DNA from: Pseudomonadota bacterium
GTDB lineage: Bacteria; Desulfobacterota; Desulfobulbia; Desulfobulbales; SURF-16
Reading direction: 5' to 3'
DNA: 64,000 bases
NCBI GenBank assembly: GCA_018816555.1
Contig: JAHIVT010000091.1
Coordinates: forward strand, 70,484-134,483
The notes under the pieces are model-generated. The model had not been told where the DNA came from. It did no database searches and saw only the letters and a program-made list of their open reading frames with translations. The first letter of the stretch is position 1, and every line of letters begins with the position of its first letter. Of this stretch, positions 586 through 39,168 are shown in pieces. A program made the translations under genes and the position numbers.

Positions 586-665
586 CCTCCTTTTATTTTC
601 GGGACCCGGACGGCAATCTCATTGAGGTCTGCAGCTATGAAGAGGCTGACCGGCCGCTACCTTAA
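582..665 (+). pseudogene. 27-codon remnant of a glyoxalase/VOC-family gene (C-terminal beta-strand only)
   Basis: ATG at 582 overlaps the TGA of the preceding gene (ATGA). It translates MTSFYFRDPDGNLIEVCSYEEADRPLP*. FYFRDPDGNLIEV is the classic C-terminal VOC/glyoxalase signature, but the rest of the domain is absent. Confidence 0.4.
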
Positions 666-678
666 ATTATCATAACCC

Positions 679-1356: not shown

Positions 1357-1390
1357 TCAAACAGAATTTTAACCGCAGGAGAATGGTGTT

Positions 1391-2605
1391 TTGGAAACAG
1401 TGCCGCTGCAGGAACTTGAAAACCGCTGGAACAGATGTCGCGCTCTGCTGCAAAACTGCGTGCCCCGGGCAGCAGGAATCATCGTCTTTTCACGCCTGAA
1501 TATCTATTATCTGAGCGGCACCTTCGGCAACGGCATCTTCTGGCTGCCGCTCGAAGGCAAGCCAGTGCTGCTCTGCCGCCGAGGCTTGGACCGGGCAGGG
1601 CTTGAATCGGCTGTGGATAACATCTTCCCGTTCAGATCGTATAAAGAGATCGAGGCGGTCCTGCATGATGCCGGCTCTCCCCTGCCGGAAACCGTTGCCG
1701 TGGAGATGAACGGCCTGTCATGGGCGCTTGGCAACAGTTTAACCACTGCCCTGCCCGGCCATGTCTTTCTGCCCGGAGACAAGGTGCTGGCCATGGTCCG
1801 GGGCACCAAGTCCGACTGGGAGCTGGCAAAGCTGGACAAGGCTGGAGCAGGGCATGCCCGTTGTCTGGTGGAGCTTCTCCCTCCCCTGCTCAAGGAGGGC
1901 ATGACAGAGCTGGCCATAGCCCACTGCTTGTCCAATATCTTTTATGCCGAGGGCCATCATGGTATTTTAAGAATGGGCAGTTATGGCGAAGAGGTTTTTA
2001 TGGGCCATATTGCCGCAGGGGACAGCGGCAATTATCCCAGTGTGTTTAATGGTCCGCTCGGTCTGCGCGGCGCCCATCCCGCGGTGCCGCACATGGGGTC
2101 GGGCAGCAAGGTCTGGAGGGCGGGAGAGCCGCTGACCATTGACAACGGTTTCTGTTTTGCAGGCTACCAGACCGATAAGACCCAGGTCTACTGGCTGGGA
2201 GAGCGAGGCACCATCCCGGCCAGCGTACAGGCTGCCCAGGATTTCTGCATCGAGGTGCAGAGCTGGGTTGTCGATCACCTCAAACCCGGGGCGCTGCCGA
2301 GCGATATCTGGCATCACGTGTCCGCCTGGGCGGACCAAGAGGGCTGGGGCAAAGGCTTCATGGGACTCGGCAAAAACAAGGTAGGCTTTGTCGGCCATGG
2401 CATCGGCCTGGCCATTGATGAGTATCCCGTCCTGGCCCGGGGTTTTGATCTGCCCCTTGAACAGGGCATGGTGCTGGCCGTTGAACCGAAAATAGGCATT
2501 CCAGCGGTGGGCATGGTTGGGGTTGAAAACACCTTTGTGGTGACGGAGCATGGTGGACGAAGCCTGACCGGAGACCAGTTCACCATCATCTGTGTTGAAG
2601 CCTGA
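1391..2605 (+). CDS. M24-family metallopeptidase (Xaa-Pro aminopeptidase-like)
   Basis: TTG start. N-terminal creatinase-like region plus a pita-bread C-terminal region with GHGIGLAIDEYP and VEPK...GVENTFVVTE motifs. Confidence 0.85.
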   Translation: METVPLQELENRWNRCRALLQNCVPRAAGIIVFSRLNIYYLSGTFGNGIFWLPLEGKPVLLCRRGLDRAGLESAVDNIFPFRSYKEIEAVLHDAGSPLPETVAVEMNGLSWALGNSLTTALPGHVFLPGDKVLAMVRGTKSDWELAKLDKAGAGHARCLVELLPPLLKEGMTELAIAHCLSNIFYAEGHHGILRMGSYGEEVFMGHIAAGDSGNYPSVFNGPLGLRGAHPAVPHMGSGSKVWRAGEPLTIDNGFCFAGYQTDKTQVYWLGERGTIPASVQAAQDFCIEVQSWVVDHLKPGALPSDIWHHVSAWADQEGWGKGFMGLGKNKVGFVGHGIGLAIDEYPVLARGFDLPLEQGMVLAVEPKIGIPAVGMVGVENTFVVTEHGGRSLTGDQFTIICVEA

Positions 2606-2657
2606 TTGCCTTGAAAAATGAGGTTTCTGGTTCGCGGACAGGGAGAGGGGAGTGGTT

Positions 2658-3560
2658 ATGAAGCTTGCCGATGTTTCTTATAAAACCATCATCGAGAACC
2701 TGCATGACGGTTTGTATTTTGTCGACCGCAACAGAGTCATAACCTACTGGAACAAGGCCGCTGAGCAGATATCCGGTTTTGCCGCGGATGAGGTGGTCGG
2801 CCGGTCCTGTTCCGACAACATTCTCACCCATGTGGACGGCAGCGGCAGAAGCCTCTGTTTTGGCATGTGCCCTCTTGCCCAGAGCATTACCGATGGCAAA
2901 TTCCGTGAGGCGGAAGTGTATATGCACCACAAGGATGGGCACAGAATACCCGTTTCCGTGCGCGTCAGTGTGCTGCGTGATAAAGAGGGCAGAATCATCG
3001 GCGGTATTGAGCTGTTTACCGACATCAGCAACCAGAAGGCCAATGCGCTACGGCTGCAGGAGCTGGAAAAACTGGCCCTGCTGGATAATCTCACCCAGCT
3101 GGCAAACAGGCACTATATTGAGCGGGAATTACTGAGTCGCTTTGAAGAAAAAAAGCGTTTCCAGATGCCGTTCGGCGTTCTTTTCATGGATATCGACCAG
3201 TTTAAGCAGTTTAATGACAGCTATGGGCATGACGCCGGTGATGAGGTGCTGCGTTTTGTGGCAAAAACCTTTCTTGCCAACTCCAGACCTTTTGATCTCT
3301 ACGGCCGTTGGGGCGGAGAGGAATTTCTCGCCATTATCCGCAATATTTCGCCCCAGGACCTTGAACAGCTGGGCAACAGGTTGCGCTTGCTGGTGGAGCA
3401 GTCCTATATCACTTATGGAGGTGAGAGGCTGCAGGTGACCATCTCCCTTGGCGCCACCCTGGTGCAGGATGATGACAATGTGGAGAGCCTGCTTAAAAGA
3501 GCGGACACCCTCATGTACCGGAGCAAGGCGGCCGGCCGCAACTGTCTGACGATGGGATGA
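2658..3560 (+). CDS. PAS-domain diguanylate cyclase (GGDEF)
   Basis: PAS-like N-terminus (LHDGLYFVDRNRVITYWNKAAEQISG) and a GGDEF domain with an intact GGEEF active site. ATG 2658 is preceded by GGGAGAGGGGAG; the ORF track begins 6 nt earlier at GTG. Confidence 0.9.
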   Translation: MKLADVSYKTIIENLHDGLYFVDRNRVITYWNKAAEQISGFAADEVVGRSCSDNILTHVDGSGRSLCFGMCPLAQSITDGKFREAEVYMHHKDGHRIPVSVRVSVLRDKEGRIIGGIELFTDISNQKANALRLQELEKLALLDNLTQLANRHYIERELLSRFEEKKRFQMPFGVLFMDIDQFKQFNDSYGHDAGDEVLRFVAKTFLANSRPFDLYGRWGGEEFLAIIRNISPQDLEQLGNRLRLLVEQSYITYGGERLQVTISLGATLVQDDDNVESLLKRADTLMYRSKAAGRNCLTMG

Positions 3561-3584
3561 GACAAGATAAAAAGGGTGCCGGAG

Positions 3585-4802
3585 CTAGAAAGACGGCATG
3601 GGCATGGCGCCCCATTTGTTTTTTCCCGACGGGATGATAATGGAAACAATACGGTGATCATCGGCATCCATATCAACCAGCAGGACCGGCTTTCTCTTCA
3701 TGCCCAGCTTGAATATCTCCTGTGGCTGGGCCAGGCCGCCCTGGTCATCGCTTACCCGCACAAAAACAAAACGTTCGACATGGTAATCCGTTTCCACGCT
3801 GCCTAGTGTCCTGATATAGTTATAGAAAATTTTAAAGAATTTCCCCAGCCCTCCCTTGAATTTATGCTGGTGCCATTCAAGCACCTCAGGAAAGCGTTCA
3901 ATAATATCGTCGGAAAAACGGCGGTCTTCATCGGTGACGATCGCGGTCAGAAAAAAATCACCCGGGAATATATAGACCAGATTGGCACCGATCTCTCCCT
4001 GCAGAAAGGGCTTAACCTTGCTGGAGGAGGCGACTTTTTCGTAAAGCGTGCGGACTTCCGCCGGCGGACGGGGGAAAACGGGCAATACCGTCATGGAGTT
4101 AACCTCCACCGCGGGCAGCTGTTTGATGGTATAGGTTCTGATCCCCATGGCCAGCCCGATGCAACAGACCAGGGTAAGACAATAGGCGACAAGAATGCCC
4201 AGCCATTTCGGCTGGAGCCAGCCGAAGAGGAGCCGGTAGATTTTGCCGCCCGGCTCGCCCGGGATGAACATGGGGGTATTGCTCATGTATGTCTCATAGC
4301 TGCCCGGAGCTTCCTGGGTCATGCGCCACTCTTCATTGCGGGCCAGCAGGTAATAGACAAAGAGCATGGTGACGTACATGATGAGGATGATGAAGCGGGG
4401 CCAGTAGAGCAGAAGACCGAATCCCGAGATGGCGAGAAACAGGTACTGCGGGTGCCTGATTTTTTTGTAAAAGCTCATCTGCACCACCCCTCGGCCGGTA
4501 AAACGGCCGTAGTACAGGGGGATTGCCGCGGATAAGAACAGAAGGAGACCTATGGGCAGCAGGATCTGCAGATAGGAGATGATGAGGATGACCTGATCAT
4601 TGGGGAAGGTCATGTGCGGCAGAAAAAATTCCGTGGTCCAGCTCAGGTAGGGCGAGGAGGAAAAGAATTCCAGCACCGGTCCGTAAACCGAGTAAAAATA
4701 GAGCGCAAACGGCGAGATCATGATAATGATCTCCACTCCGATCAGGCAATAGGCGGCAATTGTCGCAACCAGAAACCACTGGTGACTTTTCTGCTGGGCC
4801 AT
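3585..4802 (-). CDS. polytopic membrane protein with isoprenylcysteine carboxyl / phospholipid methyltransferase-like domain and uncharacterised C-terminal domain
   Basis: Multiple TM helices. The KKIRHPQYLFLAISGFG...ARNEEWRM motif is typical of the ICMT/PEMT family. The C-terminal ~190 aa have no motif I recognise. Confidence 0.7.
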   Translation of the reverse strand: MAQQKSHQWFLVATIAAYCLIGVEIIIMISPFALYFYSVYGPVLEFFSSSPYLSWTTEFFLPHMTFPNDQVILIISYLQILLPIGLLLFLSAAIPLYYGRFTGRGVVQMSFYKKIRHPQYLFLAISGFGLLLYWPRFIILIMYVTMLFVYYLLARNEEWRMTQEAPGSYETYMSNTPMFIPGEPGGKIYRLLFGWLQPKWLGILVAYCLTLVCCIGLAMGIRTYTIKQLPAVEVNSMTVLPVFPRPPAEVRTLYEKVASSSKVKPFLQGEIGANLVYIFPGDFFLTAIVTDEDRRFSDDIIERFPEVLEWHQHKFKGGLGKFFKIFYNYIRTLGSVETDYHVERFVFVRVSDDQGGLAQPQEIFKLGMKRKPVLLVDMDADDHRIVSIIIPSGKNKWGAMPMPSF

Positions 4803-5016
4803 TTCATTTCCCCTTTTCTCTGGGTCATACCACCAAAAAAGATAAGATTTGACAGTGCCTGGACAATGGTGGTTTTATTGATGAAACAATATATCATGTT
4901 ATTTGTCTAGCAATCAATTTCTGCGGTGAATAATGCGCCAGGCCCTGCAGCAGCCCGACTTTTCCAAGCAGGCAGGCAGTTGCTGTTGTCTATAAAAAAA
5001 GCAAGTAAAGGCAGTT

Positions 5017-7492: not shown

Positions 7493-8127
7493 TCATGAAG
7501 GCTGAAACATTTTTTACGGAAGCTGACAAAAAGAAAATCGCTGATGCGGTTCGCGCCGTGGAGCTGAAAACGGCCGGTGAGATTGCGGTGATGGTTGTCG
7601 ACCGGAGCGATGCCTATCCCGAGGGCCAGATTCTGGCTGGCGGTCTCATCGGCAGCCTGTTGGCCCTTGCCGCAACAGAGCTGTTCTGGGGTGGGGCTTT
7701 ATGGGTGTTTGTGGTGTCGGCCCTTGTGCTGACCGCCCTCTGCGGCTGGCTTGTGCACTATCTGCCCGAGGTCAAAAGATTCTTTACCCCCAATGACCGG
7801 CTGGAACTGCAGGTGCGGGACCGAGCCCTTACCGCCTTTTATGAAAAGGGACTGTATAAAACCCGTGATGAGAGCGGCGTGCTTTTTTTTATTTCCCTTT
7901 TTGAACACAAGGTCTGGGTGCTGGCGGACAAGGGAATCTATGACAAGATAAGGCAGGAGACCCTGCAGGCATACGCCCATGATATTGCCGCGGGCATTAA
8001 GAGCGGCAAGGCCGCCGATATGCTGTACCGGGCGATCACGGATGCGGGGGAACTCCTGGCCCGTCATTTTCCTGTCAAACCCGATGACGTCAATGAGCTC
8101 TCCGACGAGGTCATTATCGGGCAATAA
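7486..8127 (+). CDS. TPM-domain (DUF477-like) membrane protein
   Basis: FFTEADKKKIADAVRAVELKTAGEIAVMVV is typical of the second TPM protein of LemA-TPM-TPM operons. It overlaps the upstream stop by 7 nt. Confidence 0.8.
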   Translation: MVIMKAETFFTEADKKKIADAVRAVELKTAGEIAVMVVDRSDAYPEGQILAGGLIGSLLALAATELFWGGALWVFVVSALVLTALCGWLVHYLPEVKRFFTPNDRLELQVRDRALTAFYEKGLYKTRDESGVLFFISLFEHKVWVLADKGIYDKIRQETLQAYAHDIAAGIKSGKAADMLYRAITDAGELLARHFPVKPDDVNELSDEVIIGQ

Positions 8128-9851: not shown

Positions 9852-10172
9852 ATGGCAATTATTGAACATGCAGGAAATTCTTACGATGTTGACGAGGACG
9901 GCTTCCTCACAAAAGGTATGGAAGAATGGAATGAAGGTTGGGTTGAGTACGTAAAAGGCCTCGAAGGCATCGGCGACCTGACCGACGAGCATTGGAAAGT
10001 TATCAACGCTCTGCAGGATTACTACAAGAAAAACGGTATTGCTCCGATGGTTCGTATTCTTTCCAAAACCACAGGTTTCCCGCTGAAAAGAATTTATGAG
10101 CTGTTCCCCTCAGGACCTGGTAAAGGAGCCTGTAAAATGGCTGGTCTGCCGAAACCGACCGGTTGTGTATAA
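9852..10172 (+). CDS. dsrC: DsrC (TusE/DsrC/DsvC family sulfur-relay protein, dissimilatory sulfite reductase gamma)
   Basis: 106 aa. The C-terminal arm CKMAGLPKPTGCV has the two conserved Cys 10 residues apart, with the penultimate Cys. Strong RBS AAGGAGGA at 9840-9847. Confidence 0.95.
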   Translation: MAIIEHAGNSYDVDEDGFLTKGMEEWNEGWVEYVKGLEGIGDLTDEHWKVINALQDYYKKNGIAPMVRILSKTTGFPLKRIYELFPSGPGKGACKMAGLPKPTGCV

Positions 10173-10211
10173 TGCTTTTATAAACAGTCTTTCAGCTGTT
10201 TAGCTTTTCAA

Positions 10212-10249
10212 GGGGGTTGCGGATTTGGTTCTGCAGCCTCCTTTTTTTT
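10212..10249 (+). terminator. intrinsic terminator of dsrC
   Basis: GGGGGTTGCGG (10212-10222) pairs with CTGCAGCCTCC (10231-10241), including 2 G-U pairs. The loop is 8 nt and is followed by T8 (10242-10249). Confidence 0.75.
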
Positions 10250-10258
10250 GTGGAAAAT

Positions 10259-11026
10259 TCACTGGGTGCTGAGAAAATTCCGGTGAATTGCCTCCACCCT
10301 GCGGTGATACTCAGCCGGGCTGATTTGCGCTCCCTTGATGCCGCCGCGTAAGTTGATCTCGGCTAAAAAGGTTTCCCCACTTTCCACAATCATCAGATCA
10401 ATATGGGCGTATGGGAATTTGCCCCTGCCCATGACCTGCCGACAGAAATCAAGTTGCTCCCCGCTTATGTCACAGGGGGTGCTCTGTCCCCCGCAGTGCA
10501 GATTATTTCTGAAGTTGTTCGGATTGTGCCGTGCGTACGACTCGATATAATCGCCAAGCATAATAACACGAATATCCCGGCTGTTTTCGGCAAATGGCTG
10601 GATGACAAAGGGGAAGGGCAGGGAGCCGAGGGTGGCTTGGCTGAAAACGTCCTCAACGTTTTGCCACAGATGGATGCCCATGCCGGCATTTTTTCTGTCA
10701 AGCTTGGTCACCACTCGATTGATGCCGTTTTCCTGATACAGATTGACGGTCTCCAGCATGTCATGCTGGTCATGGACCGGCATGGTGAGTGGAAGCATCT
10801 GCCTGGCAAAAATATGGGCCTGAAAAACCTTTGAGCGGCAGAGATGCTGGCTCAGCGCTGAAGGAAAGAGAATAATGCCACGTTCAACCAGATCGAGGAG
10901 AAGATGCTCCTCGGTGGTCTTGAGGCGTAATCGCCCGATAAAAATATCGCCGCACTGCAGGGTATGATATTCTTGTCGCAGGATCTGGTTTGTGGTGATA
11001 ATGCGGGGATTTGGAGAGGGATGCAT
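10259..11026 (-). CDS. ATP-grasp (RimK-like) ligase family protein
   Basis: 255 aa with an ATP-grasp pattern (VVTKLDRKNAGMGIHL, VIQPF...RDIRVIMLGD, DLMIVESGETFLAEINLRGG). Its start shares one base with the stop of the upstream gene (TAATG). Confidence 0.8.
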   Translation of the reverse strand: MHPSPNPRIITTNQILRQEYHTLQCGDIFIGRLRLKTTEEHLLLDLVERGIILFPSALSQHLCRSKVFQAHIFARQMLPLTMPVHDQHDMLETVNLYQENGINRVVTKLDRKNAGMGIHLWQNVEDVFSQATLGSLPFPFVIQPFAENSRDIRVIMLGDYIESYARHNPNNFRNNLHCGGQSTPCDISGEQLDFCRQVMGRGKFPYAHIDLMIVESGETFLAEINLRGGIKGAQISPAEYHRRVEAIHRNFLSTQ

Positions 11027-28681: not shown

Positions 28682-28868
28682 GGTGCGGCACGTCGTCCTT
28701 TTCGGTCTCCTAATAGAGCCTGCTCTTTCCTGTCGCCGATCCCCTTGACGCCGATCAAATTTTCATCATACAAAGCCAACCGCACAAAAACGAAGTACAG
28801 GGTCACGCCTGCTTTATGCGCTTGGCAGAATTGGTATTGCCGAAAGGCGGCTCGGCTCCTATCTCCTG

Positions 28869-29741
28869 TCAAGCCGAAAGAGGGATGGCGCCGACGCTGT
28901 CAATAATTTCCCGGAGGGAAAAGTCGTCGATTTGTTGAGGGTCATAGACAATATCGACCTTTGACCGGATATTTTTTTTCCACAGATCAAAATGGGCGGC
29001 GATTGTGGCGACGATGCGATCCACATCATCGGTAAAGGTGACGGTCTTGAAATCCTCTTCGCTGATCAAGGGCACCTGGTCCTGCTCAAGCCTGTCGTAG
29101 TAAAGGATTTTGCTGAGGACCTCCATGAATCCCTCCCACATGGGGTGTGCCAGGATGGGAAAATCGTTCTCAATGTGATTGACCTGCTTGAGCTGCAGCA
29201 GGTAGAGCATCTCGAGCGCCGTGCCTAAGCCGCCCTGAGCGCAATAGGCAGCCTTGATCTGGCTGACAAAGGCCTGCAGGCGTGTGGAAAAATTTTCGTG
29301 CTTGGTGGTGATGTGGGTGATACCGTTGCCGCTTTCCTCAAACGGCAGGGTAATCAGAATGCCGACATTGTCGGCGTAGGTTTCTTCTCCTCTTTTCGCC
29401 CGTGCTGCCCGTGCCCTCTCAAGCCCCTCATTGGCTGCCTGCATGATGCCGGGGCCGCCGCCCGTCACCACGCCGATCTTGCGGGCCTGGACGAGTGCCT
29501 TGGTCAGTTCGGAGATATACTGGAATTCGGAAGAGTTTTTTTCCGTGCGGGCGCTGCCGAATATGGCGATCCGGTAATGGGCCACGAGATCGAACCGCTC
29601 TTTGCGTTGCAGCTGCTGTTCGAAAATCAGACGCGATTGTTTCAGACGGGTAATGGCGGTAATGAAATTTTCCAGACGAAATGTCTGTCTCTCTTCCGCC
29701 TGCTGGATATCGGCGATGGCCTCGAGTCGTGAGTGGGTCAT
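28869..29741 (-). CDS. LOG / TIGR00730-family Rossmann protein (nucleotide 5'-monophosphate nucleosidase-like)
   Basis: GGGPGIMQAANEG and QGGLGTALE (PGGxGTxxE-type) motifs. Confidence 0.85.
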   Translation of the reverse strand: MTHSRLEAIADIQQAEERQTFRLENFITAITRLKQSRLIFEQQLQRKERFDLVAHYRIAIFGSARTEKNSSEFQYISELTKALVQARKIGVVTGGGPGIMQAANEGLERARAARAKRGEETYADNVGILITLPFEESGNGITHITTKHENFSTRLQAFVSQIKAAYCAQGGLGTALEMLYLLQLKQVNHIENDFPILAHPMWEGFMEVLSKILYYDRLEQDQVPLISEEDFKTVTFTDDVDRIVATIAAHFDLWKKNIRSKVDIVYDPQQIDDFSLREIIDSVGAIPLSA

Positions 29742-29783
29742 GATGCTTTCCGGTTAGGTAAAGTTCTTAAAAAGTAGGCAATA

Positions 29784-29930
29784 TATACACAGCGACATAA
29801 GCCCGATCCATCCCATCAGCCTTTGTCACTCGCTGCGGTGCCTGCTCACAGCGCTGCAAGGCTGCTCCGTCGGCTCCTCGCTTGTTTCGCGGCTGTTCTT
29901 GGGCGCCTCGAACTTATGTCGCTGTGTATA
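29784..29930. repeat. 147-bp MITE-like element with perfect 18-bp terminal inverted repeats
   Basis: TATACACAGCGACATAAG (29784-29801) is the exact reverse complement of CTTATGTCGCTGTGTATA (29913-29930). The 111-bp interior has a central CAGCGCTG palindrome. If the outer TA is a target duplication, the TIR is 16 bp. Confidence 0.6.
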
Positions 29931-30182
29931 GTTGGTGTTTTGCCTGCTGTCAAGCTGATGCAGCCCCTCCTCCTCGGCCTGGTGCTATTGACCACTGCTG
30001 ACTTTCTCCCTTCACGCTGCCCTGAAATCCTGGGAAAAAAGCTGATATCTTCATAAGTTGTTGATTTGCCATGCCGGTTTTGTTAGAGAAGATGGACTGC
30101 CGTTTGCTGCGGCAGTTCTTCATTAAATCTACCTCTTCACCTGACCAGTACGTGAAATGTCATAAGCCAAGGGGAGTGTGAT

Positions 30183-33100
30183 ATGGACCCCATCACCTCG
30201 AACTTTCTGACCAGTGTGGCCGCCGGGTTGACCGGAAAATTGCTGAACGCGGCCGGGAGCCGTATTGCAAAATCCTTCTCCGGCCCGGAGGAGAAAGAGG
30301 CTCTTCACCTCGCCATCCGTGACGGCATTGTCGCCCTACTGCTCACCATACCAACCGAAACCGAAGATGAGCGTGGCCATCTGGATGATATCTTCAAGGA
30401 TTTCTTCCAGGACGAGGACACGGCCAAGGCCCTGGTGGGACTCTTGCGCGGTATGCCGCCGGACCTGGAAGATCTTCAGGATATTTTCAGTGATCTGGGT
30501 TTTGTTGCCGAGCAGATTGCAGGCTTTGTTTTCCGAGAGGCCATGCAGGCCTTTACCGCCGCCTTCCTGGAATCTGCGGAGAGTTCACAAGTCCTGCAGC
30601 CGATTATCAAAATCGGCTTGCTCCGAAAACAGGCAGGTCTTCAGGAAGAAACCCTTGCCGCAATGCAGCAACTGATCTCCTTTCTGCGGCAAGCCAAGGA
30701 GGAGAGTATAAGCCTCCAGGCCGGTATCCTCCATGCCCTGGAAAAGAAGGATGCAAAACCAATGGAGTACCGCCCGCAGTTGCGGGTTATTGCCGCGGAA
30801 GGTGATTGGCAGAGCCGATACCTGCGCACTATGTGGGGCGTCTGCGACAGGCTAGAGCTGATCAACTTTGACGAATCCGCCTGCGGGACCGGAGACGATG
30901 ATGAGCTGAAGATCTCCCAGGTGTTTACCACCCTCAACCTGGCCAATCTCGATTGCGCCGAGGGTGAGGATGTGGGCGAGGTAATCCGGGGAAAATATAG
31001 GGACCAGCAGATGTCCGGGAAGGGAAGAGAGAGAGCGCGACGTTCCATTCGGGCGGTGGGTGCCGTGGCCGCCATGGACCGGCTGGTTATTCTCGGTCGG
31101 CCCGGCAGCGGCAAGAGCACACTGGTCAATCATCTGGCCGGTCAGCTCGCCCAGCGGCGAGCCAATATGCCAGAAGGATTGGCTGACTGCGGCTGGTCTG
31201 ATGAGAAACGGCCTCTGCCGGTCCGCATCGTATTGCGGAAATTTGCCGCCTGGCTGCCCGACGAAGAGCAGGCAAACGCCGGCCTGGTGGGGCGCTATCT
31301 GGAAAAGATGCTCTCTGATATGGACTGCGGGGAGGCCTACCCCTATCTCAAAAAGGTGTTATGGGAGGAGGGCGGTATCATATTTTTTGACGGGCTCGAT
31401 GAGGTGCCGGCCGGGACCGGTCGCGAAAAACGGAAGCGTATCATCGAGGCAATCCGGGATTTCTGCGCTCCGCTGGATAAATGCAAGGTGGTGGTGACCA
31501 GCCGGGAATACACCTACAAAAAGGAGGATAGCTGGCGGCTGCCGGAAAATGAATTTCCAGTGGTGGAGCTGGCCCCCTTCGGCGAGGAGCAGATGGGCGT
31601 CTTTGCCCGGGCGTGGTATGGAGCGGTGGGCCCGAAAAAACTCTGGGACAGGAAGAAATGCGATGACGAGGCAGAGAGCCTTTTTCATGCGGTTTGCTCT
31701 CAGCCCCATTTGAAAGACATGGCCGGTTCCCCCCTTCTGCTCACCATAATGGCCCAGCTCCACGGCCGGGACGGCACCCTGCCCCGGGACCGGGCCGAAC
31801 TCTACAAAAGGGCGGTCCGTGCCCTGCTCTCCCTCTGGGAAAACAGGATTGTCCGGGATGCGGGCGGCATAAAACGGATGGAGCCCGGTCTGGTCATGCA
31901 ACTGGGAGTTCGGGAGGATGTCCTGCAAAAGGTCCTGGAGCGGGTGGCCTTCCTGGCCCATGAGCGGCAGGAGGGTGAAAGGGAGACAGGGGTGCAGCCG
32001 GCCGACATCCCCCGGGCCGATCTGCGGGATGAACTTGAAAAGGAACTCAAGGATCTGAACAAGGCCCAGGAGGTGATCGATTACATCCAGCTTCGTTCAG
32101 GACTTTTGATCGCCAGGGACGGACGGACCTATGCCTTCCCCCACCGTACCTTTCAGGAATATCTGACTGCCACCTATATCCTCGGCAAGGGTGATTGCGA
32201 CCGGATGCTCAAGGAAAGGGTCAAACGGGCCCCTGACTGACTGGTGGCGGGAGGTCTTTCTGCTGGCTGCCGGCTCGGCCCGGGACAATCCCCGCATCAT
32301 TTCCGACCTGGTGGATTGTCTGCTGCCCCATGGTCCAAAGGACGAAAAGATCAGCCCGGAAAAACACTCTCATGTCTGTCTGGCTGCAACCGCCCTGGCG
32401 GAGACCGGCAGCGTCGAACGGGTCCGCCGGGAGCTGGCCGAGGAACCGGAGGGCGGCCGCTTCAGCCGTACCCACCACACCATCCAGCAGTGGCTGCAGG
32501 CAGCCATGCGATTCGCATCAGGATTGAATCCAAGGTTGCGGGCCGGGGCCGGCCGGATGTTGGGTGCTTTGGGTGATCCGCGACCAGGTGTTGGCTTGGG
32601 GCCGGACGGACTGCCGGATATGGTCTGGTTGGATATTGGAGAAGGTCCCTTCATCAAGGGTCAGGGAGATAAGGTGTTTTTAAAAAAGCCCTTTCAGATC
32701 AGCAAGTATCCGGTGACGGTGGCCCAGTTCCGGGCCTTTGTGGAGGACGGCGGCTATGCGAAAGAGGAGTTTTGGACCAGATCGAGCTGGCAATGGCGGC
32801 AGGATGTAAAGGTCACAGGACCGCGAGGTTTTTTTGGCGGGGTCTTTGCTACGGAAAACCATCCGGTGGTCGGAGTGAGCTGGTATGAGGCCATGGCCTT
32901 TTGCTCCTGGGTGTCACGAAGGACCGGCTGGCAGGTAAGTCTGCCCACCGAGGTCCAGTGGGAACGAGCGGCCCGCGGCTCAGATGGGCGTGAATATCCT
33001 TTTGTCGGTCTCTCTATATTCATGGCAATTTTAGAGAGACAGGACTGCAAGGAACATCAGCAGCGGGGCTCTTTGCCGAAGGGGATGCGGAGTGCGGGGC

Positions 33101-33299
33101 CTCTGATATGGCGGGTAATGTCTGGGAGTGGTGTGATGTTCTGGAAGGTGAGGCTATACTGGGGGTGCACGGCGGCTCGTGGCGCAACGATGCTTCGCTC
33201 GCCCGCTGCACCATCTGCTTCAGGTTCGAGCCCCACCTCAGGGACGACTACTTTGGGTTTCGTTGCGTCAGGACTCTAGTATCATGTAACATTAATTAG
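30183..33299 (+). pseudogene. NACHT (STAND) NTPase fused to C-terminal FGE-sulfatase/SUMF1 (C-type-lectin fold) domain, disrupted by two frameshifts and an IS630 insertion at the 3' end
   Basis: Frame 0 (30183-32240) carries Walker A GRPGSGKST (31095-31121) and Walker B IIFFDGLDEV. The protein continues in frame +1 (LTDWWREVFLLAAG ... YPVTVAQF ... HPVVGVSWYEAMAFC). It returns to frame 0 for DMAGNVWEWC...GGSW...YFGFRCVRT. The last codons run into the IS. Confidence 0.75.
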
Positions 33300-34505
33300 T
33301 TCGCATTTATTATCTATAGTGATATACTGATGGCATCCACAACAAAGGAGGCCATCATGTCACCGAGATACAGAGTTACTTTGACCAAAGAGGAGCGCAG
33401 CGAGCTCGAGGCATTGACGAAAAGGGGAAGAATCGAGGCCAGGCGATTCAAACACGCCCGCGCTTTGCTTCTTTGTGACGCTGGGCCAGAAGGTTTAGCA
33501 TGGAAAGTCGCTGATGTAGCTGATGCCCTGGGGGTAACCAGCCGCTCAATTGAACATCTGAAGAAGCGCTTTGTCGAAGAAGGACTCGAGGCTGCTTTGG
33601 AGCGCAAGCCAAGAGAGAAGCCTCCAAGAGATGTTATCTTTGACGGAGCATTTGAGGCACGATTGATTGCCTTGGCTTGTTCTGAAGCGCCGGAAGGACA
33701 CCAGCGATGGACAGTCAGGCTACTTGCAGAAAAAGCGGTTGAATTGAGCTTTGCTGATAAGGTGTCGCACATGACAGTGCAGCGGGTATTAAAAAAAATG
33801 AACTTCAGCCTCACCGCAAGAAATACTGGAAAATCCCGCCGAAAGGAAACGCAGCCTTTGTAGCGGCGATGGAAGATGTTCTGGAAGTATACCATCTTCC
33901 ATATGATCCTGCGTATCCAGTGGTTTGTATGGACGAATCTTCCAAGCAGTTGATCGGTGAAGTTCGAGAGCCAATACCAGGAAAACCCGGCCAAACGCGG
34001 TGCATTGACGATGAATACGTCAGAAATGGTGTCGCAGAAATATTTATGGAAGTTGAACCGCTGGCAGGTCGGCGCCATGTAGCGATCACGGAACGGCGAA
34101 CCCGTAAGGATTGGGCGGCACAGATAAAGCAAATGCTCGCTGAGCGTTATCCTCATGCTTGCAAGGTTCGTCTGGTGATGGACAATTTGAACACGCATAA
34201 TATCGCCTCACTCTATGAAGCCTTCGAACCCCAAGAGGCGAGGCGGTTGGCGGAAAGACTCGAAATTCATTACACACCCAAGCACGGAAGCTGGCTCAAC
34301 ATGGCGGAAATCGAGCTCAGCGTTCTCAAGGGGCAGTGTCTTGATCGCCGGATACCAGAAATGGCGGTCATGCAGGCCCATGTTGCTGCCTGGGGAAAAG
34401 CGAGAAACAATAGCGCGCGGAAAATTGTTTGGCAGTTCAAAACATCGGATGCTCGAATAAAGCTCCATCATCTGTATCCGAAAATATAAAAGTTACTAGG
34501 TACTA
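33277..34505 (+). mobile_element. IS630-family insertion sequence flanked by TA duplication
   Basis: Imperfect TIRs GTATCATGTAAC (33279-33290) and GTTACTAGGTAC (34492-34503) match at 9 of 12 positions. TA lies on both sides (33277-78, 34504-05). The element contains a two-frame transposase. Confidence 0.85.
33330..34489 (+). CDS. IS630-family transposase (HTH + DDE), produced by -1 ribosomal frameshift
   Basis: orfA is 33330-33863 (HTH region). orfB frame is open from ~33782, with its ATG at 33869-34489 (DDE region: VVCMDESS...LVMDNLNTH...HGSWLNMAEIE). The slippery heptamer A_AAA_AAA at 33791-33797 joins ...VLKK to NELQPHRKKYWKIPP. Confidence 0.85.
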
Positions 34506-34592
34506 GTTAAATAATCCTTTGTTCTCTTATTTTTTTTTACCCTTTAAAACAAAGCCGCCGCAGGCGGGCGAAATTTTTTCCGTAGAGAGATT

Positions 34593-34742
34593 GTGAAGGA
34601 AGTTGACGCCATAACCAAGCTCTATGATTACCTGCTCTGGCTGGTTCCAAAATTGGAGAAGTTTCCCCGCAGCCAGAAGTTTTTACTGGCCGACCGGATC
34701 GGGAACCTGGGAGCAGAAAGGGGGTCAGGCTTGACATTCTGA
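34593..34742 (+). pseudogene. truncated avd (DGR accessory variability determinant, four-helix-bundle family) fragment
   Basis: GTG 34593 translates VKEVDAITKLYDYLLWLVPKLEKFPRSQKFLLADRIGNL, then unrelated residues and a stop after 49 codons. The pattern xxLYDxLLWLxPxxEKFPRxxKFxLxDRIxNL matches Avd N-termini. Confidence 0.6.
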
Positions 34743-34856: not shown

Positions 34857-36611
34857 ATGCACAACCAATGTGTTTCCCGTATCTTTGTTTGCTTTTCCTT
34901 CCTTCTTCTGGCAGCGCCCGGCAATGTCCCGGCCCAGGTGGGGGCGCCGGTCCTCAAGTGGCAGCACGGCGGCTGTTATTCGAGCTGGTGTGAGACGGGC
35001 TGGTACTCGTCACCGGCAGTTGCCGATCTGGACAATGACGGGGATATGGAGGTTGTTGCAGCCACCTACTCGGTTTTTATCTTAAATGGAGAGGATGGGG
35101 AGTTGAATAAGGCAATCGATCCCCCCGGCGGCAGGGTCTGGTCCGGAGTGGTCCTGGCCGATCTCGATGCTGACGGAGACACTGAAATCATCACGGCCCA
35201 CGGCGGCGGCTATCTCAATGTTTATGACCATACGGGAAATATCCTCTGGTCAAAGAACCCTGTAACCAACGAACTGCGGGGGCTTTCGGTGAGTGATCTG
35301 GACAACGATTCCACTTTGGAGATCATTGTCACCGGGGCGGTATACAGCAAGACCAACACCTGGGTCTATGAGCATGACGGCACGCCGCGGACCGGATGGC
35401 CGCAACTGACCAATGATCTGGGCTATGCCTACGGAACCTTCAACGACACTGCCACGGTGGGCGATATCAATGGTGACGGCGAGAGTGAGGTCATCGTGCC
35501 TTCGGATGTTCATTACATCTGCGCCTATTACCCGGACGGCAGCCATATCTGGGCAGACCCCATCTATGGCGACAAAGCATGGGGGAAAGTGGGCGTCTGG
35601 GAGAGTTTGATTCCGGAACTTCGGGGCTGGGGAAGCTGCGACGGCGACAGAGTGGAGAGCTATCGGGCTAATTTTGCCCATGGCGCCGGGGCAATAGCGG
35701 ATATGAACGGGGACGGCCAGCCAGAGATTATAGTCACCGGCAATGTCTATGACTGCAGCACAACTTCCTATGAGTCGCGATATACGGGGCTCTACATCTT
35801 TGACGCCGACCGGAGCCGCTTTAATGACAGCGTCTTCAACTGGGAGGCGGCCCCTGTTGATACCGGAGCGCCCCTTGTCGAGGATTACAACGTGATCGAA
35901 AGCGCCATCCCCAATCCGGCAGTTGCCGATCTTGACGGCGACGGGCTACTGGAAACCCTGTTTCCCTCCTATGACGGCAGGCTCCATGCCTTCTGGCTCG
36001 ACAAGACGGAACACGGCAACTGGCCCTATTCGGTTTACAAGCCGGCCGAGGGGGTCTTCCGCTTTGCCTCTGAACCGGTGATCGCCGACCTTGACAATAA
36101 CGGCACCGCCGAAGTCATCTTCACCTCCTGGGTTCAGAAGGGAAGCGCTCTCACCGGCAAACTTCACATTCTCGATTATCAGGGAAATCCCCTGTACGAA
36201 CCCGATCTGCCGGGCCCCTTCGGCTCTGCCGACTGGAACGGCAGCCTTGCCGCCCCGACCATTGCCAATATCGACAATGACGACGATTTCGAGATCGTGG
36301 TCAACACCGCCCACTCCGGGGTGGTTGCCTTTGATCTGCCGGGCAGCAGCCTGGCCCGTATCCTCTGGGGAACAGGCCGGGGCAGCTATCATCGCAACGG
36401 CGTCCCCTACCATGATCTTTCCCTTTGCCCTGCCGACATCTCAGGCGACGGCCAGGTAGCTTCAGCGGACCTGGCAATCTTTGCCGGCGCCTTTGGCAAG
36501 GCAAACTGCAGCGGGGCAGACTGTTCGGCTGATATCGATACGGACACCGACGTGGACGCTGTTGATCTCAGCCACATCGCAGCAGGCCTCGGACAACGAA
36601 ATTGCCTCTAG
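34857..36611 (+). CDS. secreted FG-GAP/VCBS-repeat beta-propeller protein with dockerin-like C-terminus
   Basis: Signal peptide from ATG 34857. About 8 repeats of the type ADLDxDGxxEIIV. The C-terminal tandem Ca-binding-like DISGDGQVASADL / DIDTDTDVDAVDL resembles a dockerin. Confidence 0.85.
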   Translation: MHNQCVSRIFVCFSFLLLAAPGNVPAQVGAPVLKWQHGGCYSSWCETGWYSSPAVADLDNDGDMEVVAATYSVFILNGEDGELNKAIDPPGGRVWSGVVLADLDADGDTEIITAHGGGYLNVYDHTGNILWSKNPVTNELRGLSVSDLDNDSTLEIIVTGAVYSKTNTWVYEHDGTPRTGWPQLTNDLGYAYGTFNDTATVGDINGDGESEVIVPSDVHYICAYYPDGSHIWADPIYGDKAWGKVGVWESLIPELRGWGSCDGDRVESYRANFAHGAGAIADMNGDGQPEIIVTGNVYDCSTTSYESRYTGLYIFDADRSRFNDSVFNWEAAPVDTGAPLVEDYNVIESAIPNPAVADLDGDGLLETLFPSYDGRLHAFWLDKTEHGNWPYSVYKPAEGVFRFASEPVIADLDNNGTAEVIFTSWVQKGSALTGKLHILDYQGNPLYEPDLPGPFGSADWNGSLAAPTIANIDNDDDFEIVVNTAHSGVVAFDLPGSSLARILWGTGRGSYHRNGVPYHDLSLCPADISGDGQVASADLAIFAGAFGKANCSGADCSADIDTDTDVDAVDLSHIAAGLGQRNCL

Positions 36612-36699: not shown

Positions 36700-37947
36700 T
36701 TATAATTTTTTGCCCCAGGACAACACATTTTTCGCAATGGCCACTCCGCTCTGTTTCTGGATCAAGTCATGTCCGTCGTCATGAAACGGGAGATAGACCA
36801 GCTTGGCACAGACATTGGTAAAGCGGATGCGGGGCAGAAGGGGATAAACTTCTTTTTTGTTGAGTGTCGATGCTGCCAGGGTGATTTTCAGGGCCTGGCG
36901 GGCCTCACTCAAGGCAAGATTTGCCGGATATCTCCGACTGATATGGCCACCTCCGGGAGCCGGATGAAAGAGATTCTGGGCCGAGGTCATTCTTGTTGCC
37001 GTCTGGAGAAAAACCTTGGGTCGCACTTTAAATGCCGGGATAAAAAAACTCATCATCTCCTCTTTCTTTGGTCGTCCTCCCGTGCTTGGTTGCCTGGTTA
37101 CCCTGGCATAATCGGCAAATGTGCGGATTGAAAGCTCTGGAATGGCAGTGGATATCTTCCAAAAAGGGAGCCACATGGCCATTGTGTCCTGGGATTCTCC
37201 CTGCTGCCACTCCAATTTCTGCAGCCCTTTAGCGCTTACCTCCCAGACCGTGTCGCAATTGTCGCAGGGCACGGCCAGACAATCCCCTTCACCCTTCAGC
37301 TCCCAGCCGCATTGGGGACACAGAGCTGCAATAAAGTCAGACTGCCATTTCCGCTGAAAAGGCTTGCTTCTTTCCTCAAGAAAGGTGTCGGTTGGCACCG
37401 GAGATAAAGCAGAGTTGGTGACTGCATCAAAGAGATTTTTCTCCTCCTGTCTGACCGGCATATAAATAAAACTGAGACTCTCGCCGATATAGGCGCGGTG
37501 GAGAATTTGCGAATCGCCACCGGAGGCCATCGCGGAGAGATTTGCCGCCCGGGCCAGGATGCTCTGGGTTTTTATGGTCAGGGGGAGAAATCGTCCGGAT
37601 GTCTGGGGGCTCACCCTTAGTAATTTCATTGCCTGGGGCCGCAGGCCAAGGGAGGGGGGAAAGAGAAGGTCTGTAAAGCCGAGCTGGGTGGTATCAACGA
37701 TGCGATGGCTGATCTCTCTGCCACTTACCAGAAAAACAGACCCCCTGAAGCGAATATAAGGAATAAAGTAAAGATCACCGCTTTCCTGATCAAGGCTCTC
37801 GCCACAGGGAAGCGCGTACCGTGCCCCTGTGGGGTTGATTATGTAATTGCTGACCTTGCAGAAGGGGCAGAAAGAAAATCTGTCGGACTCGGCAATACTG
37901 ACCGGCGCCCCGCATTGAGGGCATCCGTGCTCAACGGAAAGGTCCAT
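36700..37947 (-). CDS. duplicated Zn-ribbon protein (YdjG-like partner of SPFH protein), unknown function
   Basis: N-terminal CPQCG...CPFC ribbon and a second CPQCG...CDNC ribbon at mid-protein, each followed by a similar beta-rich module. The start is 1 nt after the SPFH stop. Confidence 0.65.
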   Translation of the reverse strand: MDLSVEHGCPQCGAPVSIAESDRFSFCPFCKVSNYIINPTGARYALPCGESLDQESGDLYFIPYIRFRGSVFLVSGREISHRIVDTTQLGFTDLLFPPSLGLRPQAMKLLRVSPQTSGRFLPLTIKTQSILARAANLSAMASGGDSQILHRAYIGESLSFIYMPVRQEEKNLFDAVTNSALSPVPTDTFLEERSKPFQRKWQSDFIAALCPQCGWELKGEGDCLAVPCDNCDTVWEVSAKGLQKLEWQQGESQDTMAMWLPFWKISTAIPELSIRTFADYARVTRQPSTGGRPKKEEMMSFFIPAFKVRPKVFLQTATRMTSAQNLFHPAPGGGHISRRYPANLALSEARQALKITLAASTLNKKEVYPLLPRIRFTNVCAKLVYLPFHDDGHDLIQKQSGVAIAKNVLSWGKKL

Positions 37948-37948
37948 G

Positions 37949-39094
37949 TCATGTCAGCCTGTTTCCGCAGTGGTTACAGAATGTGGCCTGGGGCAGATTT
38001 TCCGTCCGGCATCCGGGACATATCAATGCTGTCGGCTTCTCGCCGGCCGGGTGACCGCAACGGGAGCAGAATAGGGCATTGGGCGCAAGATTTTTGCCGC
38101 AGTTGGCACACTGGGCCATGATGACCTGCTGATGCCCGCAATAAGGGCAAAAACGCGCATCAGCGGGAATGCTGTTTTGACAGTCGGGACAGAGCACCTC
38201 AGGTGATGGAGACACGGCACCGGCAACCGGGGCGTTGGGCGGAAAGTTCTGCTGACGAAATCCTGCAAACATGGCGGGCATCATCATTCCCATGCCGAGG
38301 CCAAGGCCGGCACCGGCTTCGCCACCGGACTCCGCGGCCTTTTCCATGGCCATGGCCGCCTTCATGGTGACAAATTTATCCATGTCCTGGATCACCGACA
38401 ACCGGCTTCTATCATCAATTGCCGCCTGCACATCATCCGGCGGGGTGATGGAGGTGATAAAAAGGGCGTCAAGCTCAAGGCCGAAGCGGGAAAAATCCTG
38501 TTTCAGCCTTTTTTTCAAGCCATCGGCCAGTTCATCAAAACGTCCGGGCAGGTTGAGCAGGGTATCAAGCTCTTCACCAAGAAAATCGTTAAACCTCGAA
38601 ACGATAACCCGCTTGAGATATTCCTCAATTTCCTCAGTGGTAAATTTTCCCATGGTACCGGCCATGGTGTTGATAAAGAGAACAGGCTGAATAATGCGGA
38701 TATTAAAGACCCCATGGGCCCGCAGTCGCACCAGCCCCAGCTCATTATCCCGAAAGGCCACCGGGTTTGTGGTTCCCCATTTGAGATTTGGAAAGACCTT
38801 GAGATTGGCAAAATAAACCTCGGCGCGCAGAGGGCTGGTCATCCCCCAGGGTAAGGCCAGTATTTTGGTCAGCAGAGGTATATTGCCGGTGGTAAGGGTG
38901 TGACGCCCCGGCCCGAATGGATCACAGGCCTTGCCCTTGTAGAAAAGGACCGCGGCCTGACTTTCACGCACTATGAGCTGCGCCCCGTATTTGATTTCGC
39001 CTGATCCGGATTCAGGTATACGGCAAAGCATCTGCTGGCCCGTTGCATCAAGCCATTCGATAACCTCGAGAAAAAAAGTATTGTTTGTTCCCAT
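37949..39094 (-). CDS. SPFH/band-7 domain protein with C-terminal triple Zn-ribbon (COG4260, YdjI-like)
   Basis: N-terminus FLEVIEW...GAQLIVRESQAAVLFYKGK is typical of YdjI/virion-core-like SPFH proteins. The C-terminus has CPDC..CPYC, CANC..CSRC and CPGC..CNHC. ATG 39094 is preceded by GGAGGA. Confidence 0.85.
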   Translation of the reverse strand: MGTNNTFFLEVIEWLDATGQQMLCRIPESGSGEIKYGAQLIVRESQAAVLFYKGKACDPFGPGRHTLTTGNIPLLTKILALPWGMTSPLRAEVYFANLKVFPNLKWGTTNPVAFRDNELGLVRLRAHGVFNIRIIQPVLFINTMAGTMGKFTTEEIEEYLKRVIVSRFNDFLGEELDTLLNLPGRFDELADGLKKRLKQDFSRFGLELDALFITSITPPDDVQAAIDDRSRLSVIQDMDKFVTMKAAMAMEKAAESGGEAGAGLGLGMGMMMPAMFAGFRQQNFPPNAPVAGAVSPSPEVLCPDCQNSIPADARFCPYCGHQQVIMAQCANCGKNLAPNALFCSRCGHPAGEKPTALICPGCRTENLPQATFCNHCGNRLT

Positions 39095-39168
39095 GTGTCC
39101 TCCCTTTTTTAATGTACCTAAAAAGGGTACAACGGGACGGCAGAGCAAAACAAACTTTTTTTACTTCT

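Follow-up and report, generated by a model that had tools for sequence, protein, structure and literature searches.

A very likely relic of a chromosomal diversity-generating retroelement at a NACHT–FGE pseudogene carrying an IS630-family insertion

A NACHT–FGE gene interrupted by an insertion sequence and followed by a short open reading frame resembling the start of Avd raises the question of whether a diversity-generating retroelement (DGR) once operated at this locus and, if so, which lesions ended its activity. From the analysis of a 64-kb stretch of DNA (hereafter the window) and its comparison with related loci, we hold with high confidence that the locus is the relic of a chromosomal DGR; every element named in the original prediction was found, either exactly where predicted or a few bases off.

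The target pseudogene (30183–33278, + strand) encodes a helical N-terminus, a NACHT/STAND NTPase and a C-terminal FGE-sulfatase/C-type-lectin domain, and its coding sequence is spread over three frames because of two frameshifts. The NACHT and FGE domains that had been proposed are borne out by Pfam profile matches: NACHT (PF05729) scores 38.7 bits in the ORF at 30183–32240 (cut-off 26.7), and FGE-sulfatase (PF03781) scores 100.4 bits in the ORF at 32191–33279, with a further C-terminal piece of 27.1 bits in another frame (33108–33299). The target also matches nSTAND3 (28.8 bits against a cut-off of 27.2), and its NTPase carries the Walker A motif (P-loop) GRPGSGKST. Full-length homologues of the target measure 1050–1100 aa, for example P0002, which is intact and 83% identical. 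Because of the IS insertion, the last codons and stop of the target now lie at 34506–34514 (+ strand; GTT AAA TAA, that is V K stop, read from the sequence). Removal of the IS had been predicted to restore the ending ...RCVRTLVK*, with the stop at 34512–34514, and this agrees with orthologues of equal length, which end in ...RCVRTLNR* and ...RCTKTLDR* at the same position as the restored window sequence.

Comparison with a near-identical locus (L001, 99.9% identical) and with loci of about 90% identity (L003 and L238, 89%; L004, 90%) defined four lesions in the target: a CTGA duplication, a 7-bp deletion, a 48-bp deletion and the IS630. The first frameshift is the tandem 4-bp CTGA duplication (32233–32236, + strand; GCC CCT GAC [TGAC] TGG TGG), which is strain-specific: it is absent from the MAG contig L001 and is the sole difference between the window and L001/L002 over 7.8 kb besides 35 bases where the L001 contig ends, and the proteins P0001, P0002 and P0003 read ...KRAPDWWREVFLLAAG across the site. 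The second is the 7-bp deletion within the FGE domain (33015/33016, + strand), recognized in alignments with L003, L004 and L238 and common to the window and L001, a concordance that gives it limited independent support, as L001/L002 and the window may come from closely related samples. An inverted repeat around this site (GTCTCTCTA...TAGAGAGAC, 33009–33046) was considered as an inserted element behind the frameshift and rejected, the alignment being that of a simple 7-bp deletion. Both of the frameshifts originally proposed are therefore real, and the damage extends further than had been noted, to a 48-bp in-frame deletion (16 codons; 33133/33134, + strand) between the NVWEWC and GGSW motifs, directly 5′ of the variable repeat (VR). 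At this point 48 bp are present in L003 and L238 and 42 bp in L004, and the more distant P0003 has the segment as well. Because it is split by the 7-bp deletion and lacks 16 residues, the FGE domain would be unable to fold intact. P0001, the 1030-aa protein of L001, was rejected as proof of an intact allele, its C-terminal ~90 residues being out of frame; this is a warning for annotation, as a database protein that passes for ‘intact’ is actually frameshifted at its C-terminus.

The predicted IS630-family element occupies 33279–34503 (+ strand; 33277–34505 with the TA copies) and carries the hallmarks of its family, namely a DDE transposase, imperfect terminal inverted repeats of 31 nt (33276–33306 and 34476–34506) and a TA duplication (33277–33278 and 34504–34505) inside a CTAG target. 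Its transposase (33330–34489) is encoded by orfA (33330–33863) and orfB (33869–34489), joined by a −1 shift at an A8 run (33791–33798) into a single 386-aa protein that matches NF033545 at 219 bits (cut-off 100) over profile positions 3–298 of 299. The element looks intact and sits about three codons ahead of the target stop, at a CTAG 1–3 bp past the end of the TR/VR homology, where it parts the VR by 1.2 kb from a box and hairpin further downstream.

The VR had been placed at 33120–33275; its presence is upheld, and its span is redrawn to a region of TR-type homology at 33161–33275 (+ strand) with a hypervariable block at 33183–33254 (72 nt, 24 codons). This block is flanked by the conserved GGCGGCTCGTGG and GGGTTTCGTTGCGTCAGGACT, the latter being the point at which the TR/VR homology of relatives ends and a 3′ end common to the TRs and VRs of the related DGR clade. 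BLAST homology to L003, L004 and L238, which are ~90% identical elsewhere, stops at 33134 and restarts at the stop codon. Among the sister loci, codon positions 1, 2 and 3 are variable in 79, 75 and 46% of the VR codons, against 9.4, 9.6 and 25% elsewhere in the gene; positions 1 and 2 thus vary ~8-fold more inside the VR than outside it, and position 3 is mostly C/T, a pattern that, on sequence grounds, is the NNC signature of adenine mutagenesis and is as expected if the target C-terminus is a DGR variable region, as had been proposed. Among the 246 loci compared, TRs of related DGRs come closest to the VR, and their adenines are over-represented among the mismatches; against the heterologous TR of L083, the VR is mismatched at 18 of 30 adenine sites and at 16 of 75 others (p=4e-4). 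None of the 246 loci contains a cognate TR, the best TRs having 15–20 non-adenine mismatches, and the enrichment at adenine sites was not significant for the VR of L004 against the same L083 TR. From the heterologous TRs and the codon-position statistics we infer adenine-specific mutagenesis of the window's VR, which, read through a heterologous TR, has the NNC-type variation and the place at the C-terminus of a CLec/FGE target that characterize DGR targets.

Between the target stop and avd lies a conserved cis element (34535–34569, + strand), made up of the box TTTTACCCTTT (34535–34545) and a short, GC-rich hairpin (34554–34569; GCCGCC-GCA-GGCGGGC) that is followed by a T-run. The hairpin had been noted in the original prediction, and it recurs in ~20 related DGR loci, in which the box is invariant. 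For its 5-bp helix, 89% of cells are paired, compared with 29–60% when the partner is slid, and two pairs are changed on both sides, indicating some compensatory change. A scan of the whole 64-kb window against Rfam gave no match. The hairpin corresponds to the hairpin/cruciform that the prototype DGR, that of Bordetella phage BPP-1, needs downstream of its VR (Guo et al., 2011, PMC3240598). The target side of a homing site, a conserved VR 3′ end with a downstream hairpin, is thus present, with the IS now between the two, and the clade-wide box CTTTTACCCTTT plus hairpin is a candidate homing or promoter element.

The 49-codon ORF beyond the hairpin (34593–34742) proved to be, as suggested, the N-terminus of Avd breaking off abruptly. 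The avd remnant (34593–34709, + strand) consists of a GTG start and 38 codons (VKEVDAITKLYDYLLWLVPKLEKFPRSQKFLLADRIGNL), and past codon 39 (34709) the sequence is unrelated until the stop at 34740–34742. The ORF matches the NCBIfam profile DivGenRetAVD (NF033474) with E=9.5e-7 over profile positions 4–35 of 104, at 29.1 bits, a score that a fragment would be expected to have against a full-length cut-off of 80 bits, and matches Pfam bAvd (PF22296) with E=0.27 only. The remnant is 87% identical over 38 aa to the Avd of L083 (residues 3–40 of 115), a protein that itself scores 108.7 bits against NF033474 (cut-off 80) and adjoins an RT and a TR. A complete four-helix Avd has ~105–120 aa; the window holds residues 1–39 only, and residues 41–115 of the L083 Avd have no match anywhere in its 64 kb. 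The remaining parts of a complete DGR cassette, RT and TR, are both missing from the window, in line with the prediction: tblastn with the RTs of L083 and L007 gave a best E of 0.5, the RT motifs YxDD and [IL]GxxxSQ occur in none of the six frames, and the VR and related TRs match only 33161–33275, with no second copy. The deletion junction lies at 34710–34714, and from 34715 onwards the sequence is the upstream region of an FG-GAP gene. In L238, which lacks an avd remnant, this FG-GAP upstream region also follows directly after the hairpin region, and the window and L238 have the same right-hand junction (AGAAAGRGGGTCAGGCTTGACAT..., from 34715). Dismissal of an 18-nt junction match between the window and L003 (E=0.49) as chance was abandoned, as L238 showed real flank homology.

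Intact relatives place these remains in context. L083 (JAJRUP010000119.1, MAG ‘bacterium Dive96_bin10.193’) resembles the present locus in its NACHT+FGE target, its VR/TR framework (GGSW...ARCA...GFRC) with the same 3′ end, and its Avd; the intergenic region from stop through box and hairpin to avd is homologous to that of the window in spacing and sequence. Unlike the window, L083 is complete, with avd at 3449–3796, RT at 3783–4877, TR at ~4836–4956 and adenine-only VR/TR mismatches (12 of 30 adenine sites changed, 0 of 75 others); its target carries an additional methyltransferase domain at the N-terminus, and the locus is not orthologous. L007 is an active DGR with four NACHT–FGE targets, bAvd, RVT_1 and a TR, and 17–24 adenine-only mismatches per VR, so that in both L007 and L083 homologues with the FGE domain are targets inside active DGRs. 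Of the original order proposed earlier, target(VR)-avd-TR-RT, the position of avd after the target stands, whereas the TR-RT order is probably wrong: the closest intact relative has target-avd-RT-TR, an arrangement classed as B2 by Wu et al. (PMC5758913). The generic VR/TR framework pattern (GGSW..ARCA) occurs in at least 119 loci in genome contigs, and those listed do not include the genome of the window. The VR 3′-end pattern recovered 119 loci from metagenome contigs, including L238 and many related intact DGRs, with no orthologue having an intact core and no cognate TR among them, and the avd-fragment pattern gave no match in metagenome contigs. The L083 RT had 7939 matches in a protein database, none tied to the window's genome, and this search was uninformative.

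Could the window instead hold an orphan DGR target that has lost only its local core, with a complete DGR of its clade, elsewhere in the genome, continuing to diversify it in trans? Such service is documented for incomplete loci in Thiohalocapsa PB-PSB1 (PMC10907252), many homologues (L005, L006, L003) lack avd and RT over a distance of 7 kb, the flanks on which homing to the VR depends are intact, and the VRs of three sister lineages are completely different though all lack a core. Against this, the reading frame is broken three times, leaving no product to diversify; the IS630 separates the VR from box and hairpin, and in BPP-1 the distance between VR and hairpin matters (PMC3240598); the window and L001 have one and the same VR, as do L003 and L238 despite ~1% divergence elsewhere; and the 246 loci compared offer no cognate TR. 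We therefore consider continued diversification in trans improbable.

It is more doubtful still that the frameshifts are assembly or sequencing errors in a functional receptor with an IS near its 3′ end. The 4-bp indel that separates the window from L001 does make at least one lesion less than universal, but neither indel lies within a homopolymer, the window shares the 7-bp and 48-bp deletions with two database assemblies, L004 carries a different frameshift of its own that fits relaxed selection, and the IS alters the C-terminus regardless. The least credible reading, that an ordinary NACHT–FGE gene unrelated to any DGR happens to precede a chance Avd-like ORF, could appeal to the weak bAvd match and to the lack of a nearby RT or TR. 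It is effectively refuted by the active DGR at L007, in which homologues serve as targets, by the VR codon-position signature, by the NCBIfam match and the 87% identity to an Avd encoded beside an RT and TR, and by a box and hairpin conserved with ~20 DGR loci.

A decayed DGR thus remains the preferred reading. Judging from the intact relatives L083 and L007, the original target would have been a STAND NTPase of NACHT type that putatively served as an intracellular sensor, with a C-terminal FGE/C-type-lectin ligand-binding domain. The ~24 variable codons of the VR at its end would have been overwritten repeatedly by cDNA, copied from a TR by an error-prone RT acting with Avd and bearing adenine-specific misincorporations, with the VR 3′ end (GGGTTTCGTTGCGTCAGGACT) and the box and hairpin beyond it as the probable homing site and the core most likely directly downstream of the target, in the order avd-RT-TR. 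The present state agrees with the predicted inactivation by IS insertion and deletion: the core is gone from avd codon 40 onward, and the target is a pseudogene through the 7-bp and 48-bp deletions plus, in this strain, the 4-bp duplication. The VR is frozen because the core is deleted, the target is broken and the IS630 parts it from the box and hairpin; the term ‘dead’ applies to the DGR at this locus only. The right-hand junction common to the window and L238 could reflect a single early loss of the core before the sister lineages split, after which their differing VRs would have been written in trans by a second DGR. We regard this scenario as rather unlikely; if true, the locus would preserve the trace of a target that changed from cis to trans service and only then decayed for good. 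The alternative is that three sister lineages lost the core independently at one locus, and that in one of them (L003/L238) the receptor stayed intact, with its VR frozen.

As a degenerate DGR, the locus is a fresh example of a known phenomenon. DGR-diversified STAND NTPase/C-type-lectin proteins of the FGE subtype have been described as ‘putative antigen sensors’ of multicellular bacteria, including degenerate, transposon-damaged loci (Doré et al., 2024, PMC10907252), and the conflict systems of Kaur et al. (2020, PMC7159879) are counted with them. Like the present locus, the loci of Doré and colleagues combine a helical or effector N-terminus, a STAND NTPase and a C-terminal FGE/CLec domain with a VR, and in decay show missing or pseudogenized RT, TR or accessory genes, transposons and orphan targets. 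The present locus differs in its host, an uncultivated deltaproteobacterium-like MAG, in its damage, an IS630 at the VR 3′ end plus small target indels, in having no demonstrable surviving master DGR, and in its STAND domain, which is NACHT by Pfam rather than the nSTAND1 of PB-PSB1 DGR 6. With BPP-1 it shares a VR at a C-type-lectin C-terminus, a GC-rich downstream hairpin, Avd and adenine mutagenesis, but it is chromosomal and non-functional, with a cytoplasmic STAND target in place of a phage tail fibre; its hairpin is shorter (5–6 bp) and lies at a greater distance from the VR (~50 nt), and its core order was probably avd-RT-TR, unlike that of BPP-1. Premature stops, truncations or poor TR-VR matches led Wu et al. 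(2018, PMC5758913) to discard over half of the candidate DGRs in a survey of GenBank; the present locus belongs to this inactivated class, and differs from those discards in that sister loci, near-identical or ~90% identical, allow its decay to be taken apart one lesion at a time. The conceptual gain is small, as STAND-CLec DGR targets, orphan targets and transposon-degraded loci have all been published. The value lies in a well-resolved case, in which sisters of 99.9%, 99% and ~90% identity let each inactivating lesion be named, and in which their comparison reveals a VR frozen after loss of the mutator and one sister lineage with an intact receptor.

The locus at 30183–34742 carries the variable repeat (VR) signature, homing-side element and Avd remnant of a diversity-generating retroelement (DGR) target, and is without the reverse transcriptase (RT), template repeat (TR) and full-length avd of a complete DGR. 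Its target gene, in a reading of the 28–37.5 kb region with its ORFs, runs through a 685-aa ORF (30183–32240), passes into the +1 frame (32191–33279) and returns to the first frame (33108–33299). Pfam places NACHT (38.7 bits, cut-off 26.7) and nSTAND3 in the first part, and FGE-sulfatase in the second (100.4 bits, profile positions 34–133) and third (27.1 bits, profile positions 181–255), as expected of the predicted NACHT NTPase running into a C-terminal FGE-sulfatase domain. By the Pfam and NCBIfam assignments across 30183–34742, the description in the original prediction was accurate. With the target repaired conceptually and used as query, a protein search placed it in a family of ~1050–1100-aa NACHT–FGE proteins and led on to four closely related loci: L001/L002, a MAG contig (GCA_018815965.1) with 99.9% identity to the window across 7.8 kb and the same HtpG–SLOG–target–IS630 gene context; L003 (89% identity), with an intact 1056-aa target gene; L004 (90% identity), which keeps the HtpG synteny; and, later, L238, which is 99% identical to L003.

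These sister loci define the two frameshifts that had been predicted in the target. One is a 4-bp CTGA duplication at 32233–32236, which is the sole difference between the window and L001 besides 35 bases at the contig end and is strain-specific. The other, judged against L003, L004 and L238, is the loss of 7 bp between 33015 and 33016. L001 has this deletion too, so that the L001 target protein P0001 (1030 aa, ‘100% identical’ in the database) is not intact: its final ~90 residues are out of frame. P0001 (L001 3531–6623) is annotated as an intact ‘SUMF1/EgtB/PvdO family nonheme iron enzyme’, and is really a frameshifted pseudogene product. The window lineage is also missing 48 bp (16 codons) at 33133/33134, between NVWEWC and GGSW. 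The lesion in L004 differs, a 1-bp insertion splitting the gene into 616 + 428 aa, and only L003/L238 have an intact target allele among these sister loci.

The NACHT–FGE family is genuinely DGR-served. The related locus L007/L008 contains four NACHT–FGE targets, a caspase-like peptidase, bAvd, a TR and RVT_1; its target P0010 is 45% identical to that of the window, and each of the four VRs departs from the L007 TR by 17–24 changes, at adenines only. This active DGR (L007 1–15765) has its Peptidase_C14 (caspase-like) gene embedded between the four paralogous targets, and compared with the TR its VR at 10156–10278 carries one inserted base. A second locus, L083 (MAG Dive96_bin10.193), is a complete DGR, with a methyltransferase–NACHT–FGE target (151–3381), an Avd (3449–3796; 108.7 bits against NF033474), an RT (3783–4877; RVT_1, 8e-28) and a TR (~4836–4956) that overlaps the 3′-end of the RT; Wu et al. 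(PMC5758913) class this arrangement, avd–RT–TR, as architecture B2. No avd or RT occurs within 7 kb of the homologues L005 and L006 (Desulfonema ishimotonii), and orphan target copies are therefore common.

BLAST homology between the window and L003, L004 and L238, which is ~90% elsewhere, is lost at 33134 and comes back at the stop codon. Aligned by codon, the three lineages vary at codon positions 1, 2 and 3 in 79, 75 and 46% of codons in the 24-codon block 33183–33254, against 9.4, 9.6 and 25% in the remaining target gene; the normal pattern is thereby inverted, as happens under AAY-to-NNY adenine mutagenesis. The closest sequences to the VR in the 246 fetched loci are the TRs of related DGRs (L129, L083, L225 and others), not other VRs, with 18–20 mismatches at ~30 TR adenines and 15–20 elsewhere. 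Compared with the heterologous L083 TR, mismatches fall at 18 of 30 adenines versus 16 of 75 other sites (p = 4e-4), while the VR of L083 differs from its own TR at 12 of 30 adenines and at none of the 75 other sites. Because no cognate TR was found among the 246 fetched loci, the evidence that 33161–33275 was a DGR variable repeat is indirect.

Downstream of the target, the predicted truncated Avd-type ORF (49 codons, 34593–34742) matches NCBIfam DivGenRetAVD (E = 9.5e-7, profile positions 4–35 of 104), and Pfam bAvd at E = 0.27 only. In local tblastn the remnant is 87% identical to L083 Avd and 76–88% identical to various metagenomic Avds; the match of the L083 Avd query is limited to residues 3–40 (34596–34709), residues 41–115 finding no match in the window. 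The interval from the target stop to the avd start is homologous in about 20 loci of the clade (for example L083 3395–3425, L129, L156, L223), in which an invariant, often tandem box, CTTTTACCCTTT (window 34535–34545), is more strongly conserved than the hairpin sequence and is followed on its 3′ side by a GC hairpin of 5–6 bp with a 3–4-nt loop (window 34554–34569). Pairing of the hairpin helix holds in 89% of cells, versus 29–60% with the partner slid, and two of its pairs show changes on both sides; the folding energies of single sequences do not stand out. We consider the box and hairpin a candidate homing signal, avd promoter or terminator. In phage BPP-1, a GC-rich hairpin 4–34 bp 3′ of the VR is needed for homing, its distance from the VR matters, and it is conserved in phage DGRs (PMC3240598).

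The absence of RT and TR also held: searches of the 64-kb window turned up neither an RT motif nor an RT homologue (best tblastn E = 0.5), and no further copy of the VR or related TRs. Of two metagenome pattern scans the first gave no match and the second relatives only; in a scan of genome contigs this organism was not among the matches listed, and an RT protein search gave thousands of hits, none of which could be assigned to its genome. The lost core probably did not follow the canonical target–avd–TR–RT order of the original prediction: the closest complete DGR, L083, is arranged avd–RT–TR, and by analogy the lost core probably had that order.

The IS630 element (33279–34503) has 31-nt imperfect terminal inverted repeats and a duplicated TA (33277–78, 34504–05) within CTAG. 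Its removal in silico does restore the target stop, giving …RCVRTLVK* at 34512–34514, the position at which the orthologues end (…RCVRTLNR*, …RCTKTLDR*). Profile searches assign the HTH half of the transposase to orfA (33330–33863) and the DDE half to orfB (33869–34489). A −1 shift on the A8 run at 33791–33798 (…VLKK/NELQPHRKKYWKIPPKGNAAFVAAMEDV…) joins these halves into a single protein that scores 219 bits against NF033545 in one stretch (profile positions 3–298 of 299); the element looks functional, and its split looks like programmed frameshifting or transcriptional slippage, not decay. The insertion lies 1–3 bp past the end of TR/VR homology (CAGGACT) and therefore displaces the box and hairpin 1.2 kb from the VR, which by inference would block retrohoming even with TR and RT supplied in trans.

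The sister lineages differ in how much of avd they have kept. In the window, 39 avd codons remain before the FG-GAP upstream region is entered. In L004 about 20 codons are left, their GTG start now GTC, and beyond them lie unrelated sequence and a Transposase_29 gene. No avd codon survives in L003 and L238, where 20 nt of filler link the hairpin region to the same FG-GAP upstream sequence that starts at window 34715. One ancestral core deletion followed by further erosion is possible, as are several independent deletions with nearby right ends. The VR is static within lineages, being identical between the window and L001, and between L003 and L238 although these diverge by ~1% elsewhere. Between the sister lineages the VRs are almost completely different, so mutagenesis went on after the lineage split, which favours independent later core losses or a period of service in trans. 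If the deletions were independent, the 3′ flank of an orthologue with intact avd–RT–TR should carry TGTACCACCTTTCAAAAGTA-AGAAAG.

STAND NTPase–FGE/CLec proteins have already been described as DGR targets, as have multi-target and orphan-target arrangements and ‘degenerate’ loci, some of them trans-diversified, in which RT, TR or accessory genes have been lost, turned into pseudogenes or replaced via transposon or MITE activity (Doré et al., 2024, PMC10907252; Kaur et al., 2020, PMC7159879). Over half of the DGR candidates of Wu et al. (PMC5758913) were set aside as inactivated. The window locus is a further, cleanly documented example of such degenerate loci.

A 1.3-kb segment (28685–29999) is found in the window and L001 and is absent in L004 and L003, which instead share, ahead of the target promoter region, ~45 bp of different sequence. 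It comprises a minus-strand SLOG/LOG-like gene (28869–29741; Pfam Lysine_decarbox and LDcluster4) and a MITE-like element of ~143 bp (29784–29930) with perfect 16-nt terminal inverted repeats, TACACAGCGACATAAG, at 29786–29801 and 29913–29928, and TA at both flanks, a target-site duplication typical of IS630/Tc1-mariner derivatives. The element occurs once in the window, and its terminal repeats bear no relation to the repeats of the IS630 at 33279. In L003, a ~70-bp fragment of the hisF 3′-end is present in duplicate (3650–3720 and 7720–7790), on either side of a 4-kb block with a PEP-CTERM gene and the target gene, which suggests rearrangement or chimeric metagenome assembly. Judging from L238, this allele natively has the FG-GAP gene on its right, just as the window does. 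Further downstream in the window (34858–36611, 36700–39148), a secreted FG-GAP repeat protein with a dockerin-like C-terminus, a 415-aa zinc-ribbon protein and an SPFH/Band-7 protein with double zinc ribbons have no apparent link to the DGR relic.
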